Shown: piece by piece, positions 262 to 32,034 of the stretch | Numbering within the stretch: the stretch's first letter is position 1 | Layout of the letters: every line of letters starts with the position of its first letter | Virus genome (UHGV): UHGV-0173140 | Origin: a virus | Direction: 5' to 3' (one strand) | Length of the DNA: 34,663 nucleotides | Translations under genes and position numbers: made by a program | Notes under the pieces: model-generated | The model's database searches: none | What the model saw: only the letters and a program-made list of their open reading frames with translations | What the model was told of the DNA's origin: nothing

Positions 262-303
262 AGGGTAGTTGTGTCGGTGTAATCCGTCAAGAATTATTTT
301 ACG
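262..303 (-). promoter_or_regulatory. conserved promoter copy (UP aaaataattc / TTGACG / 17 bp / TACCCT), minus strand
   Basis: Reverse complement of 285-300 is aaaataattcttgacg; ATG of the partial CDS lies about 30 nt downstream. Confidence 0.5.
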
Positions 304-370
304 TATAGATTCATGGGAAGTATGCGACTCCCTATACCTTTTAAACCTCTTCTACTTACAACAACTTTTA

Positions 371-483
371 CTACTTATACCACTCTTCTATTTATTTATG
401 TTTTCTATGTTATCTATAAAAAGATAATAAAAAGAATAAGATAGAGAATGGTCGGTTAAAAAATAAACATGGCGCGATCTATG
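371..483. repeat. ~110-bp AT-rich dispersed element, copy A
   Basis: Near-identical to 19541-19646; shared core tatgttttctatgttatctataaaa(a)gataataaaaa ... ataagatagaga ... ggttaaaaaataaacatg ... atctatg. Confidence 0.75.
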
Positions 484-496
484 AATCTATGATCTA

Positions 497-580
497 CTAA
501 TACACGTTCTGTATTAGCTGCAACTCAAAATCATGAAACCTATGTAAAACCATGTGTAGCTAATACAGAACGTGTATTAG
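497..580. promoter_or_regulatory. pair of 21-bp palindromic operator-like sites (ctaatacacgttctgtattag at 497-517; exact reverse complement at 560-580)
   Basis: Each site has 8-bp arms ctaataca/tgtattag around a 5-bp asymmetric centre; centres are 63 bp apart; the second site abuts the UP element of the promoter at 588-629. Confidence 0.5.
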
Positions 581-587
581 CTGTATC

Positions 588-629
588 TTTAAAATAATTC
601 TTGACGAATTACAGACAGTAGGGTATCTT
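588..629 (+). promoter_or_regulatory. conserved promoter copy (TTGACG 601-606, -10 tatctt 624-629)
   Basis: ctttaaaataattcttgacgaattaca motif; 17-bp spacer. Confidence 0.55.
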
Positions 630-675
630 TATCACGGGAAGCAGCGATGGGTTGCTTATGAACGAGGGTGTGAAA

Positions 676-1059
676 ATGGGAATGTATACCGAATTAGTGT
701 TGAAGTGTCAGATTAAAGTAGATGCACCTGTGGACGTGAAAGCTATTATTGCACACATGTTCTGTGGTGAAAAAGAACCAGAGAAACTACCACAACATAA
801 GTTTTTCAGTCTTCCCAGATGGAATTTTATTGGTAGTTGTAGCAGTTTTTATCATCACCCGGAAGTAATAAATAGTTGTCCTAAATTTGATTTCACCGAT
901 ACTCAATATATTTTTAGTCGTAGCGATATTAAAAATTATGGTGGTGAGATTGAACAATTTATCGACTGGTTGAAACCATATGTTGATGCTGAAGATGGTA
1001 TATGCATTGGTTGGACTTGGTATGAAGAAGACTTACAACCAACATTAATCATTAAATAA
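676..1059 (+). CDS. hypothetical protein
   Basis: Track ORF 652-1059; start moved to ATG 676, which has a gagggtg SD 7 nt upstream; no recognisable domain. Confidence 0.5.
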   Translation: MGMYTELVLKCQIKVDAPVDVKAIIAHMFCGEKEPEKLPQHKFFSLPRWNFIGSCSSFYHHPEVINSCPKFDFTDTQYIFSRSDIKNYGGEIEQFIDWLKPYVDAEDGICIGWTWYEEDLQPTLIIK

Positions 1060-1074
1060 CTCCGAGACACTAAA

Positions 1075-29024: not shown

Positions 29025-29027
29025 AAT

Positions 29028-29201
29028 TTACGCTCCGAACTGACGTTCAGCAGCCATCAGTTTGACCAGGTTGATAGCAGATCGCCCGGTAAGCAGATTA
29101 CGTTTAACATGAATTTCAGTAACGTTCAGACGTTTGGCAACAGCTTCAATACCGTGGTTATCAATCAGTTTTTGCAGACGTTCAATGCGTTCAGTATTCA
29201 T
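29028..29201 (-). CDS. small hypothetical protein (57 aa), possible HTH
   Basis: MNTERIERLQKLIDNHGIEAVAKRLNVTEIHVKRNLL...; fills the gap between neighbours. Confidence 0.35.
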   Translation of the reverse strand: MNTERIERLQKLIDNHGIEAVAKRLNVTEIHVKRNLLTGRSAINLVKLMAAERQFGA

Positions 29202-29689
29202 TGTTTAATCCATTTTTCAAATTGTGAAGGGTGAGTGATGAAACGAAATTCACCACCTGCGTTTTCAACAATCGCACCGAAAGTGGCCTGTGCTTGTGCA
29301 CGTTTATCACTGGGGATCATGTGCCAGTCAGGGCGTTTCATTTCGGCAGCAATAAAGACGCCCACTTTTGAACCGATCATATCCGGTGTAACGATTTTGG
29401 TTTTAATGCCGATGTAGTCGCTTGACTTCATAACAGCGTTGATTTTCGCACTGGTGTTACCAAGACCATAACGAACCATCATTCCTTTTTCGTTTTTCAG
29501 AGCACCTGAGTTATTACGCCAGATACGTTGCCCTGCACGTGCCGCAATCAGTTCACACTCTTTACTGGTAGCGCTTTCACTTACACCGTCTTCGTGTGGT
29601 GTTCCGTCAGGCTGATAAAGAGCGTATAACTCGTACAACGCCATCTGACTAATACCGTGACGAATCGCCCATTGTTCAAGCGTTGTCAT
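29198..29689 (-). CDS. VRR-NUC-like PD-(D/E)XK nuclease
   Basis: SDYIGI ... GVFIAAEMK pattern (D...E.K). Confidence 0.6.
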   Translation of the reverse strand: MTTLEQWAIRHGISQMALYELYALYQPDGTPHEDGVSESATSKECELIAARAGQRIWRNNSGALKNEKGMMVRYGLGNTSAKINAVMKSSDYIGIKTKIVTPDMIGSKVGVFIAAEMKRPDWHMIPSDKRAQAQATFGAIVENAGGEFRFITHPSQFEKWIKQ

Positions 29690-30192
29690 AATATTTTAGT
29701 CCCACTAGTAAGATATTTAATCTGGTGTAAACAGTCGTCTAACGCGTTGTGGTAAGTACCGTCACGGGTAAATTCTTTCGGGTTAATACCCAGCAAATCA
29801 ACAGCTGTACGAACATCACGAACATTCCAGAACTTCCACGGGCAACGAACCCCAACAGCATTAAACCATGCTTCCAGAATAGTGATATCGAATGTGGAAC
29901 CATTTCCCCACGGTTTAGCATCGTGCCAGATGAATTTGGCAAAATCTTTAGCAACCTGAACAGGATCGGCAGTACCACTAAAAGCATCTTTTTGTGCTTG
30001 TTCTGACTGCTGCGACCACCACTTCATAGTGTCAGGGTCCGTGTGACCATAAGCAAGCGCATTAAAACCCATTGATGCGTAAAACGTTTCACCAATATCA
30101 CCCTGACGATCAAAGTAAACAGCGCCAATTGACAACACTGCACAACCTGGTTTAGTACCACACGTCTCAATGTCAACCATCAAATCACGCAT
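29686..30192 (-). CDS. DEDD-family 3'-5' exonuclease
   Basis: Exo I MVDIETCG and Exo III-like YHNALDD. Confidence 0.65.
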   Translation of the reverse strand: MRDLMVDIETCGTKPGCAVLSIGAVYFDRQGDIGETFYASMGFNALAYGHTDPDTMKWWSQQSEQAQKDAFSGTADPVQVAKDFAKFIWHDAKPWGNGSTFDITILEAWFNAVGVRCPWKFWNVRDVRTAVDLLGINPKEFTRDGTYHNALDDCLHQIKYLTSGTKIL

Positions 30193-30233
30193 TACAATTC
30201 CTTACGTTTAAAATATTTCTATGCAGATTACCA

Positions 30234-31895
30234 TCAGATTAATGAACTTGCAACCCTTGCAGCGAGTTCATTAGCTTCACGAGTACGTAACCCCTGAGCG
30301 CTAAGTACATCAACACCAAACACCCTGTAAAACATCTTGTAAGCGTCATCAACGGGTATACCTTTATCACGTTGAATACCCGCCCATGTGGTAATCATGC
30401 CGCGTAACTTACGCTGTGCATCGTTCATTGCCTGAATGTTTTTCATTGCACTGTAAGCTGCAACAGGGGGTGCACCAGCGTTTAACATTTGTTCTTTTAC
30501 TGCAACAGGGTCACGGTCGATTATCACAACTGCCCGGCGTAATTCTTCCAGTTCTTCAGGTGTCAGTTCACGTAAATTACCTTCTACACGATCCGGGCCT
30601 GAGCGTTCGGCTTTTTCAGGAATATGACCACAATATGGGCAGCACGGCAGACCAGACGGATAAGGCTTCAGACACGGTGGAATACCGTTATCAGGATCAC
30701 CCTTGTTTGTACACGTTGTGTTACTGTTCCCACTGCTGTTTGATGAACGACGGTCACGGTCATCTAAAGACCAGTTGTAGTGCTGATCGGGAAGTGGAAA
30801 ACCACGGGCCAGAAATCGACGAACATTACCGACTTTATCAATAATCAGTGCTTTTTTACCCGGTTTGAAACGCAATGGTCGACCCATTTGTTGTACAAAC
30901 AAAGAGTAAGATTCTGTGGGACGGTCCATTACTGCACATTCCATTGCCGGACAGTCGTATCCTTCACCGAATAAATCGTTGTTACACAGTACAAGCGTCT
31001 TACGTCGTTCAAAACGTTCCAGGATATCCGCTCGTTCCTGATTGCTGTTTCGTGAGCTGATCGCCTCTGCAGGAATACCAGCATCGCGAAATTCTTTTGC
31101 CAGTGCTTCAGCAGAATCTACGTCACACGTAAAAACAACAGTGAGTAAGCCATCTGCATATGTTTTCCACGTACTGACGGTATCACCAACAATGTTTGAA
31201 TCTTCCATCGCTTTTTTTAATGCAGATGGTTTGTAATCACCCGTCGTGTGAGAAATCATTTCTGCAGTTAATTCCAGGTCTGTTTCAGCCATAATCAGAC
31301 GATAATCAGCCAGATGTTGTTGACTGATTAACTCACGCATTGACGGACCAATGATCATTTGATCTGCGTAACCTGACGCATGACGACCCAGGCCTTTACC
31401 GTCAGCACGGATCGGTGTAGCTGTAACACCCAGACCTTTAGCGTTAGGGAATTTTTCCCGGCAGTCTCCCCACTGTGTGCCACGTACCAGGTGATGCGCT
31501 TCGTCGCTGAACACAAGAGACACGTCGTTGTACCATCGTTCGTACTGTTTTGTTCTTAACGTTTGTGAACTGGTAATAACGATGTCAGCGCCGGGGGAAT
31601 AGGTACTGTAACCAAGCGTTTTCATCTGCTGATTAGTTGCAAACTTAACAGTATCTTTTTGCGCTATAAATCTGTGTGCTAACCCTTGACGAGCAACAGC
31701 CATTGCGATTTGGCTAACCAGTTCCTTACGGTGTGCCTGGATGACTTTTACACCGTCTCTTGTTTTTACCAGTTCAGACATACAGAACGTTTTTCCTGCC
31801 CCCGTGGGAAGCACAAGAATCACGTCGTCAGCACCGCTGGACCATGCCTGACATACGTTATTGATAGCTTCAGTCTGATAATAACGAGCTTTCAT
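30234..31895 (-). CDS. superfamily 2 DEAH-box helicase
   Basis: Motif I LPTGAGKTF, motif II VFSDEAHH, motif III TATP, motif VI QQMGRPLR; C-terminal Cys cluster. Confidence 0.8.
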   Translation of the reverse strand: MKARYYQTEAINNVCQAWSSGADDVILVLPTGAGKTFCMSELVKTRDGVKVIQAHRKELVSQIAMAVARQGLAHRFIAQKDTVKFATNQQMKTLGYSTYSPGADIVITSSQTLRTKQYERWYNDVSLVFSDEAHHLVRGTQWGDCREKFPNAKGLGVTATPIRADGKGLGRHASGYADQMIIGPSMRELISQQHLADYRLIMAETDLELTAEMISHTTGDYKPSALKKAMEDSNIVGDTVSTWKTYADGLLTVVFTCDVDSAEALAKEFRDAGIPAEAISSRNSNQERADILERFERRKTLVLCNNDLFGEGYDCPAMECAVMDRPTESYSLFVQQMGRPLRFKPGKKALIIDKVGNVRRFLARGFPLPDQHYNWSLDDRDRRSSNSSGNSNTTCTNKGDPDNGIPPCLKPYPSGLPCCPYCGHIPEKAERSGPDRVEGNLRELTPEELEELRRAVVIIDRDPVAVKEQMLNAGAPPVAAYSAMKNIQAMNDAQRKLRGMITTWAGIQRDKGIPVDDAYKMFYRVFGVDVLSAQGLRTREANELAARVASSLI

Positions 31896-31926
31896 TTTCT
31901 ACCCTGTAATATCGAATCGTGAAAAA

Positions 31927-31971
31927 ATTTTAAAATAGTTCTTGACGCATTGCAACTTATTCCTCTAACAT
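31927..31971 (+). promoter_or_regulatory. conserved promoter copy (TTGACG 31942-31947) overlapping a divergent minus-strand promoter (TTGCAA 31950-31955, -10 TAAAAT at 31927-31932)
   Basis: ttttaaaatagttcttgacgcattgcaac; the reverse complement gives TTGCAA-17-TAAAAT facing the helicase gene. Confidence 0.5.
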
Positions 31972-31992
31972 CTGCATCAACGAAAGGCGAGT

Positions 31993-32034
31993 GTAAAATA
32001 ATTCTTGACAGATTACACAACACCTTTTAAAGTT
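31993..32034 (+). promoter_or_regulatory. conserved promoter copy (TTGACA 32005-32010, -10 taaagt)
   Basis: gtgtaaaataattcttgacagattacac; second of two tandem promoters. Confidence 0.5.

Follow-up and report, generated by a model that had tools for sequence, protein, structure and literature searches.

Gene layout and copies of a probable promoter in the window

The stretch of DNA considered here, UHGV virus genome UHGV-0173140 (34,663 nucleotides, called the window below), comes from a 9NA-like siphovirus (Nonanavirus/Sashavirus) and carries fourteen copies of a conserved 26-bp box, which is likely to be an early promoter for the host σ70 RNA polymerase that is reused along the genome. The assignment was made by megablast: the E. 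coli phages KarinMuster_Bas82 (PQ850612; Bas82 below), AVIO78A, PJ16, PDP46 and 536P12 match the window in reverse orientation at about 96% identity, the Salmonella phages Sasha and 9NA at 79–85% over the matching regions, and Klebsiella phages such as Carvaje at about 78%. The 9NA-like phage is virulent (PMC4153490). The minus strand of the window encodes the small and large terminase (TerS and TerL), the portal and head-morphogenesis proteins, interleaved with blocks of small genes, and the window also includes the helicase-primase region and the beginning of the exonuclease/DNA-polymerase operon. In a Pfam scan of about 50 small open reading frames (ORFs) no family was found for nearly all proteins encoded by these small-gene cassettes.

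The copies are named below by the position of the first T of their TTGAC; the spacer between −35 and −10 measures 17 or 18 bp.

262..303, minus strand: promoter copy 290, block 278–303, −35 TTGACG at 290–285, spacer 17, −10 TACCCT ending at 262; heads an ORF starting at about 230 and reading leftwards to capsid-assembly genes
588..629, plus strand: promoter copy 601, block 588–613, −10 TATCTT; heads five small genes, 676–2134
4484..4526, plus strand: promoter copy 4497, block 4484–4509, spacer 18, −10 TAACAT; heads the dUTPase cassette 4561–6262
6253..6294, plus strand: promoter copy 6266, −10 TAACCT; heads 6325–7017, which ends at the terminator 7022–7043
8475..8516, plus strand: promoter copy 8488, divergent from the portal gene, −10 TATGCT; heads 8548–9975
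12128..12175, minus strand: weakest copy, 12162, block 12150–12175 (TCTTTTTTAATTCTTGACAAATTACA), poor −10; directly after the TerL terminator 12181–12198; heads five genes, 12043–10009
14033..14074, plus strand: promoter copy 14046, −35 TTGATA, −10 TATAGT; divergent from TerL (ATG 13969), with a long leader before ORF 14304–14990
15970..16011, plus strand: promoter copy 15983, −10 TAGACT; overlaps the 3′ end of ORF 15802–16008 and heads 16044–17576, RdgC included
17584..17625, plus strand: promoter copy 17597, −10 TAAATT; heads the two-gene cassette 17661–18081
18072..18114, plus strand: promoter copy 18085, spacer 18, −10 TATAAT; heads 18150–18544; direct repeat with the copy at 17584
25068..25109, minus strand: promoter copy 25096, −10 GATAAT; heads 25037 and a long minus-strand block to about 20742 (gene of a ParB-like helix-turn-helix (HTH) protein)
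26611..26653, minus strand: promoter copy 26640, 3′ of the primase gene, spacer 18, −10 TATAGT; heads 26579–25105
31929..31971, plus strand: promoter copy 31942, upstream member of a tandem pair, TAGTTC variant, −10 TAACAT; operon from 32066
31992..32033, plus strand: promoter copy 32005, downstream member of the tandem pair, −10 TAAAGT, 32 nt before ATG 32066
7022..7043, bidirectional: terminator-like hairpin where a cassette meets a late gene; similar hairpins at 9981–10000 and 20617–20637

The cassettes behind plus-strand copies 601, 4497, 6266 and 8488 are oriented opposite to the virion genes, and one of them includes the dUTPase gene; copies 14046, 15983, 17597 and 18085 head a row of blocks which starts opposite TerL and ends facing the TerS gene. 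The hairpin terminators lie at the points where such cassettes and late genes converge. The minus-strand copies 26640 and 25096 head blocks 3′ of the primase gene, including that of the ParB-like HTH protein, and the tandem pair 31942 and 32005 heads an operon that reaches the exonuclease, annealing-protein and DNA-polymerase genes. An earlier note on this DNA had described the copies as heads of small-gene cassettes, whereas several head large replication operons instead. No box stands directly before a canonical virion gene, except for 290(−) by way of the extra ORF.

A 26-bp block conserved beyond the promoter hexamers

The alignment of the fourteen copies defines the conserved unit as a 26-bp block, TTTAAAATAATTC-TTGACR-rATTrCA, that extends from −13 to +12 counted from the first T of TTGAC; most columns of the block are invariant and the information content falls sharply on either side. 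The earlier note, which gave the 5′ edge of the block as the coordinate of plus-strand copies and the −10 end as that of minus-strand copies, had listed fourteen occurrences and stressed that conservation goes beyond the hexamers. Both statements are confirmed, since in a genome-wide motif search all the listed copies turned out to be real, by mismatch counts far above chance as well as by a weight matrix. With up to three mismatches TAAAATAATTCTTGAC matches the window 16 times where 0.46 matches are expected (13 with at most one mismatch), and with up to two mismatches TTGACRGATTACA matches it 15 times as against 2.48 expected, 13 of these being real copies; the matches to the latter pattern at 19902 and 27034 lack the upstream tract and were discarded as chance. 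Scored with the weight matrix derived from the copies, 13 sites reach 35–44 bits and 12162(−) reaches 25 bits, whereas the best of 20 shuffles of the window reaches 13 bits. In 12162(−) the T-run of a terminator takes the place of the upstream A/T tract, and this copy is still found at the same position in relatives. The family was also recovered independently by a generic repeat finder (families D2, D3 and I1–I5).

Anatomy of the probable promoter

The promoter geometry was pooled over 77 distinct strong sites, taken from the window and seven relatives (eight genomes). TTGAC is invariant in 75–77 of these sites and position 6 of the −35 is G or A in 76; the spacer measures 17 bp in 59 sites and 18 bp in 17. 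When a spacer of 16–18 bp is allowed, TAnnnT is present at 65 sites versus 4.7% of random positions, and nAnnnT at 75 sites versus 23%. The −10 hexamers of the window are as diverse as the list above makes plain, in agreement with the variable −10 that had been noticed before. All 14 window copies have an intergenic-type placement, each oriented at a gene block, and in 10 of them 30–35 nt separate the −10 from the start codon, which is preceded by a Shine-Dalgarno sequence. The classical extended −35 consensus is TCTTGACAT, and the TC before TTGAC in the box fits it. The canonical −35, the spacer of 17–18 bp, the prevalence of TAnnnT and the orientation and distance to genes all speak for the host σ70 promoter postulated in the earlier note.

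The same note had postulated a UP element. The consensus of the proximal UP subsite is AAAAAARNR, with which AAAATAATT, lying at about −46 to −38, agrees at seven of nine positions. Moreover, TTTAAAATAATT is the exact reverse complement of 12 bases, AATTATTTTAAA, within the UP element of rrnB P1, whose sequence is AGAAAATTATTTTAAATTTCCTCA (PMC3035448). No distal UP subsite is conserved in the aligned copies. The resemblance of the A/T tract beside the −35 to a proximal subsite and the 12-base identity with rrnB P1 favour this proposal, and the tract may function as a UP element for the C-terminal domain of the α subunit. Taken together, the −35, spacer and −10 data and the A/T tract point to a σ70 geometry, in which polymerase recruitment would reside on the −35 side and the −10 would set promoter strength.

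Conservation across relatives

Strong copies of the box number 14 in Bas82 (two of them in the tail region, outside the part that the window matches), 13 in AVIO78A, 12 in PJ16, 13 in 536P12, 10 in Sasha, 10 in 9NA and 9 in Carvaje. Over nine sets of matching sites the mean pairwise identity is 92% in the block, 51% upstream of it, 64% in the spacer and −10 and 45% further downstream. The Proteus phage Isfahan, with 60% portal identity, has TTTAAAATAT(A/G)GCTTGACAGATTRCA at matching junctions, where it is divergent from the portal, TerL and tail-chaperone genes, and the Morganella phage Henu15 has the variant TTTAAAGTATCGCTTGACGCATTRCA, so that the form common to both can be written as TTTAAA(A/G)TATnGCTTGACrnATTRCA. 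It follows from these variants that TTTAAA..A...C-TTGAC together with ATTRCA persists across the whole clade. Such family-wide conservation implies selective constraint on the entire block, and not recent duplication alone.

The box is missing from Vibrio phages, whose portal identity is about 42%, and its presence in more distant relatives was thus rejected. These phages carry a different repeat before late genes: in Vibrio phage 1.282.A (locus L008) a 64-nt repeat (..AACCGTTACAnnTGTCAAC..GTGATATACT) stands at 17034–17097, 19373–19436 and 23559–23622, each time ahead of a late-gene block. Repeated elements for the control of late genes may therefore be characteristic of the clade in a wider sense.

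Recombination footprints at the box

Homology breaks were collected by blastn of the window against seven relatives, which yielded 146 distinct break positions. Nine of them fall within 3 bp of a block edge, as against 0.83 expected (P = 2e-7), and 22 fall in the zone formed by the block and a 60-nt leader, where 5.25 are expected (P = 1.6e-8). Since homology breaks usually fall at gene boundaries, other gene starts provide the stricter control: breaks are found at 10/13 box-headed gene starts and at 26/59 other starts (Fisher P = 0.03; Mann-Whitney P = 0.008). The enrichment over other gene starts is real but moderate, and some breaks lie at the Shine-Dalgarno end of the leader.

Individual loci display the outcome of such exchanges. 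The segment 17584–18071 of the window consists of a box and two small genes and is bounded by two boxes; the boxes at 17584 and 18072 have one and the same counterpart box in each of Bas82, Sasha and 9NA, so that the cassette is extra in the window, and where relatives have either a 17597-type or an 18085-type leader at this locus, the window has both in tandem. In Bas82 the box and leader at 7675, which correspond to copy 6266 of the window, recur at 23594 in the tail region; the two sequences agree fully between the 5′ block edge and the Shine-Dalgarno sequence and have nothing in common on either side. The gene beginning MKNFETKEECEKY is preceded by one leader type in the window and by different types in Bas82 or Sasha. 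These duplicated and exchanged heads indicate that the exchangeable unit is an expression head of about 70 bp, composed of the box, the −10 and the leader with its ribosome-binding site. The earlier note had envisaged modular reuse and recombination-driven spread of promoter-plus-gene cassettes, and had proposed to compare cassette boundaries among related phages; in that comparison the breaks concentrate at block edges, and they are joined by the extra cassette between two boxes and by the duplicated or exchanged promoter-leader heads.

Occurrence outside the 9NA-like phages

When IMG/VR was scanned for the exact pattern, 14 contigs with several copies turned up, all of them 9NA-like, along with about ten contigs that hold a single exact 26-mer, are otherwise unlike 9NA-like genomes and match Klebsiella prophages. 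In these prophages the box, followed by a TAAGAT or TAGTAT −10, heads a gene pair for a DUF1902 (HicB-like) protein and a HicA toxin (locus L024, 4740–5264, plus strand, with similar loci in IMG/VR; Klebsiella prophage MK422448), and the exact 26-mer is the only visible promoter of the pair; one prophage variant has other sequence downstream of the same box. The prophage unit would be transcribed by host polymerase alone, which speaks against the need for a 9NA-specific activator and in favour of horizontal transfer of the box, and host RNA polymerase is probably sufficient to read it. Single-copy IMG/VR matches in marine contigs, again unlike 9NA-like genomes, were taken for unrelated promoter-like or coding sequences and not for members of the family.

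Among 185,579 bacterial species, each represented by one genome, the pattern has a single match, which is a CRISPR spacer; consequently, the box is not a host promoter, and an origin of the motif in host chromosomes was rejected. The 32-nt spacer (TTAAAATAATTCTTGACGTATTGCACTGATGT) lies in a type I-F array of Yersinia pekkanenii (NZ_CQAZ01000023; locus L085, 1152–1175, minus strand), where it is flanked by GTTCACTGCCGTACAGGCAGCTTAGAAA repeats and adjoins the Csy4 and Csy3 genes. Type I-F systems need CC just 5′ of the match as protospacer-adjacent motif (PAM), and the window copy 25096(−) has CC just 5′ of the spacer match. A spacer directed against a sequence present in about 14 copies could hit many sites in one 9NA-like phage.

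Candidate reverse promoters and degenerate copies

Several further elements resemble the box or overlap it:

4482..4510, minus strand: possible back-to-back promoter, TTGCAA-17-TAAACT, overlapping, as read from the sequence
31927..31955, minus strand: candidate reverse promoter, TTGCAA-17-TAAAAT, overlapping the copy at 31929
30207..30232, plus strand: degenerate copy, TTTAAAATATTTCTATGCAGATTACC, without TTGAC; antisense, in the helicase/exonuclease gap; conserved in 9NA and Carvaje
Bas82 35993–36018, antisense: second degenerate copy, without TTGAC, in the gap after the DNA-polymerase gene in relatives

The first of these would serve the minus-strand cluster that starts at 4453 and contains NinH and a head-morphogenesis gene. 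The second is the only σ70-like candidate for the helicase-primase operon (ATG 31895), and 9NA has TTGCAA-17-TATGAT at the matching helicase junction. The base at +10 of the block is G in all four copies with a divergent gene start less than about 70 nt upstream (4497, 8488, 14046 and 31942) and in one of the ten remaining copies (P = 0.005); in three of the four divergent copies, 14046 with its ATTGCT being the exception, this G creates TTGCAA on the opposite strand. The choice between A and G at +10 is thus explained in part. When the copy after the DNA-polymerase gene is read in the sense direction it gives TTGCAC-17-TAGAAT, which is conserved in 9NA and Carvaje and is a plausible internal promoter.

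Late-gene leaders and other repeats

Upstream of late genes other conserved elements were seen. GTGGTAAACTGTACAGAAyAGTTAC is located at 13983–14011 on the minus strand of the window, 14–42 nt upstream of the TerL ATG (13969), GTTAAGAACCGTAAACCGTATGG is located upstream of the portal ATG (about 8418–8440, minus strand), and GTAATTTGTACAGAACTATTAC upstream of the tail-chaperone gene of Bas82. All three are kept in 9NA despite diverged flanks, and Carvaje keeps the TerL and tail-chaperone elements with the portal element partly altered. These elements are candidate late promoters, activator sites or leader hairpins. The pattern GTAAACYGTAYAG shows clear conservation ahead of the TerL and portal genes; as a general late-promoter pattern it was rejected, being weakly enriched genome-wide (10 matches versus 4.6 expected).

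The two largest gene-free gaps of the window contain a 100-nt A/T-rich direct repeat with 84% identity (384–483 and 19547–19646). One of these gaps separates the divergent boxes 290(−) and 601(+), the other lies upstream of the small-terminase gene, and both repeat copies stand upstream of minus-strand late operons. The gap upstream of the small-terminase gene (19358–19849) further holds four copies of a repeat of about 32 nt (TTTACAGnTAATGCACAACATGCACTA), spaced by about 136–153 bp, and a 50-nt repeat pair; these repeats may represent iterons, belonging either to a packaging (pac) region or to a replication origin. Short-period tandem repeats occur within coding sequence at 14702–14990 and 34579–34650: ORF 14304–14990 is built there of tandem units of 9–15 nt, and the gene of a Gp2.5-like annealing protein contains 30-nt tandem units, at which the GenBank record of Sasha annotates a direct tandem repeat region.

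Interpretation of the box

We consider it likely that the box is a σ70 early promoter with a UP-like tract, standard in 9NA-like phages, and that it doubles as a recombination joint. The motif, its architecture and its placement, its conservation through the family and the recombination footprints around it were observed; from them we infer contacts with σ70 and with the α subunit, and transcription that would be early. According to this model the unmodified host σ70 polymerase would read the extended consensus −35 (TCTTGACR), the adjoining A/T tract would act like a proximal UP subsite for the α C-terminal domain, and the variable TAnnnT, 17–18 bp downstream, would tune promoter strength, to be followed by a short 5′ leader of about 25–30 nt with its Shine-Dalgarno sequence. 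In this way the box would drive the accessory cassettes that interrupt the row of virion genes as well as most replication operons, and the cassettes would end at hairpin terminators where they meet late genes. Because each genome holds about 14–16 nearly identical copies, the box with its leader forms a short patch of homology, and recombination there may add, delete and swap cassettes, as was proposed for the promoter-early stem-loops (PeSLs) of T4-type phages.

Several observations weigh against this model. ATTRCA, which occupies +7 to +12 and so the upstream portion of the spacer, does not belong to the known contacts of σ70 or α, although it is invariant or nearly so across the 77 sites and is also kept in the Proteus and Morganella phages. 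In the latter two, ATTC in the A/T tract (−4 to −2) is changed lineage-wide to nGC, which recognition by the polymerase alone does not predict. Both degenerate copies have lost TTGAC and yet retain the two flanks. Copy 290(−) points into the capsid-assembly operon and so may not be strictly early. An unusually good upstream fold is found in two of the 14 copies, 601(+) with z = −2.98 and 12162(−), where the fold of the 75 nt upstream is the TerL terminator, and the literature searched holds no transcription start or timing data for the 9NA-like group. As for 601(+), a perfect 14-bp A/U-rich hairpin is found directly upstream of it, at 553–586 (plus strand, z = −2.98).

The σ70 promoter might also be overlaid with an operator, where a phage or host protein would bind TTTAAAATA plus ATTRCA and switch the set off or boost it at the early-to-late transition. 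The near-invariance of ATTRCA and its retention in the Proteus and Morganella variants favour such an overlay, as do the substitutions at −4 to −2 that are common to Proteus and Morganella copies, as if co-evolving with a protein, and the degenerate copies that keep their flanks from the E. coli phages to 9NA and Carvaje; the window moreover encodes NinH, which is Fis-like, and a ParB-like HTH protein. On the other hand, the site is not palindromic. A dyad operator TAATTC-TTGAC-GAATTA centred on the −35 was rejected, since half of the sites are asymmetric and ATTC becomes nGC in Proteus and Morganella phages, and the TAATTC/GAATTA dyad is gone in Isfahan. A dedicated regulator was looked for among the roughly 50 small ORFs, and the Pfam scans returned NinH and the ParB-like HTH protein and no dedicated repressor-like protein. 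Furthermore, the exact box serves as the lone promoter of a moron-like unit in Klebsiella prophages without 9NA-like genes, and the degenerate copies are only slightly better conserved than the coding sequence around them. We regard the overlay as rather unlikely, and it would supplement the promoter explanation, not replace it; the additional binding factor suggested in the earlier note finds neither support nor refutation in the sequence. Similarly tentative, and at the same low level of expectation, is a combined proposal that TTTAAAATA plus ATTRCA is bound by a protein controlling the whole early set, and that the head made of box and leader can pass from virulent to temperate phages of enterobacteria and back, bringing new genes that are at once under its control; portability is in keeping with the exact copy in Klebsiella prophages and with the Yersinia type I-F spacer.

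The two further explanations are far less probable. One holds that the box is mainly a recombination or mobility sequence, either a homology patch or the site of a recombinase or nuclease, with promoter likeness being secondary. Homology does break exactly at block edges, an extra cassette does lie between two blocks, the box does occur in unrelated prophages with non-homologous flanks, and the phage encodes RdgC, an exonuclease and an annealing protein. Nevertheless, a recombination sequence has no need for a TAnnnT 17–18 bp away, as seen in 84% of sites, nor for a fixed orientation or a start codon at 30–35 nt; compared with other gene starts, breaks are no more than moderately enriched (P = 0.03), and breaks also fall at the Shine-Dalgarno end of the leader. 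We take this explanation to be very improbable. Marginally lower still we place a phage-specific reading system, i.e., a phage σ factor, a modified polymerase or a σ-appropriation complex in place of the plain σ70 holoenzyme. Conservation far tighter than that of host promoters, and the CRISPR spacer as sole match among the bacterial species genomes, would suit such a system. Still, the −35, spacer and −10 have canonical σ70 geometry, no RNA polymerase or σ gene is found in annotated relatives, and the box drives a prophage cassette in unrelated temperate phages; it is also established phage biology that the first genes expressed after DNA entry must use the host enzyme.

The reused σ70 promoter, if correct, offers a first transcription outline for a poorly studied phage group, as it would mark about 14–16 early units per genome, and it would explain how small blocks of accessory genes can sit within the row of virion genes. 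Exchange at a 26-bp promoter and its ribosome-binding-site leader would be a concrete route to the mosaic genomes of the group. The box may be used as an annotation rule for related genomes, and its naturally graded −10s make up a compact and probably strong set of host-polymerase promoters, with possible use in engineering the BASEL phage Bas82.

Comparison with known systems

The extended motif was not found described in the literature searched, a search that did not reach the main genomics paper on the group (Zeng et al. 2019, J Virol). The GenBank record of AVIO78A lists seven generic consensus-match promoters, several of them at boxes, and no extended motif. The records of 9NA and Sasha annotate no promoters.

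The early promoters of T4 and T5 and the A1–A3 promoters of T7 are read by the host σ70 polymerase, have a near-consensus −35 with A/T-rich sequence upstream, exist in many copies and act in the first wave of transcription. The box is alike in its −35, its A/T-rich upstream tract, its multiple copies and, presumably, its first-wave use; it differs in that its −10 is variable and often weak while the −35 side is frozen, and in the conserved spacer element at +7 to +12, which is not described for those promoters. The UP element of rrnB P1 and its proximal subsite were reportedly characterised by Ross in 1993 and by Estrem in 1998 and 1999. The box shares with it the 12 bases of reverse-complement identity (AATTATTTTAAA) and the 7/9 agreement of AAAATAATT with the proximal consensus, but its tract is inverted, lies about 7 bp nearer to the −35 and has no conserved distal subsite.

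Morons are said to have been described by Juhala and Hendrix in 2000 as promoter–gene–terminator units inserted in late operons of temperate phages. The cassettes of the window are likewise self-contained expression units between virion genes, lying between terminase, portal, head-morphogenesis and capsid genes, with hairpins at 7022–7043, 9981–10000 and 12181–12198, although some of them have no terminator of their own, and in Klebsiella prophages the box heads a HicA/DUF1902 unit. Unlike morons, they use one promoter type for nearly all units, share it with core replication operons and belong to a virulent phage. The stoperators of cluster A mycobacteriophages are 13-bp repressor sites and not promoters. 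They resemble the box as many copies of one short asymmetric site, spread genome-wide and oriented with transcription, whereas the box is probably a promoter, and its phage, in which no repressor is evident, is a virulent one (PMC4153490).

Among described systems the PeSLs of T4-type phages come closest. They are repeated σ70-like early promoters whose upstream regions are AT-rich (Arbiol et al. 2010, PMC2839356), stand before genes of unknown function and act as crossover points in modular shuffling (PMC2839356; Comeau et al. 2014, PMC4122927). The box behaves in the same manner: its copies are repeated, σ70-like and probably early, carry an AT-rich upstream tract, stand in variable regions before genes that nearly all lack a known family, coincide with junctions of insertion, deletion and replacement between close relatives and include the Shine-Dalgarno-proximal leader. 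It is, however, far more uniform, with 26 nearly invariant bases that include a conserved spacer element, and its phages are siphoviruses of 55–58 kb in which the row of virion genes is broken up by cassettes that often lie on the opposite strand. Full membership among PeSLs was rejected, because 12 of the 14 copies have no stem-loop in the 75 nt upstream; the folding covered these 75 nt of each copy, and PeSLs also use stem-loops within the promoter or beyond it. For this reason we do not file the box as a PeSL, though it is PeSL-like in behaviour. At the sequence level, the earlier reading is supported as a reused, UP-assisted σ70 early promoter that doubles as a recombination joint, which overturns nothing: T4-type phages have already provided examples of early promoters that are conserved and reused, and of shuffling mediated by promoters.

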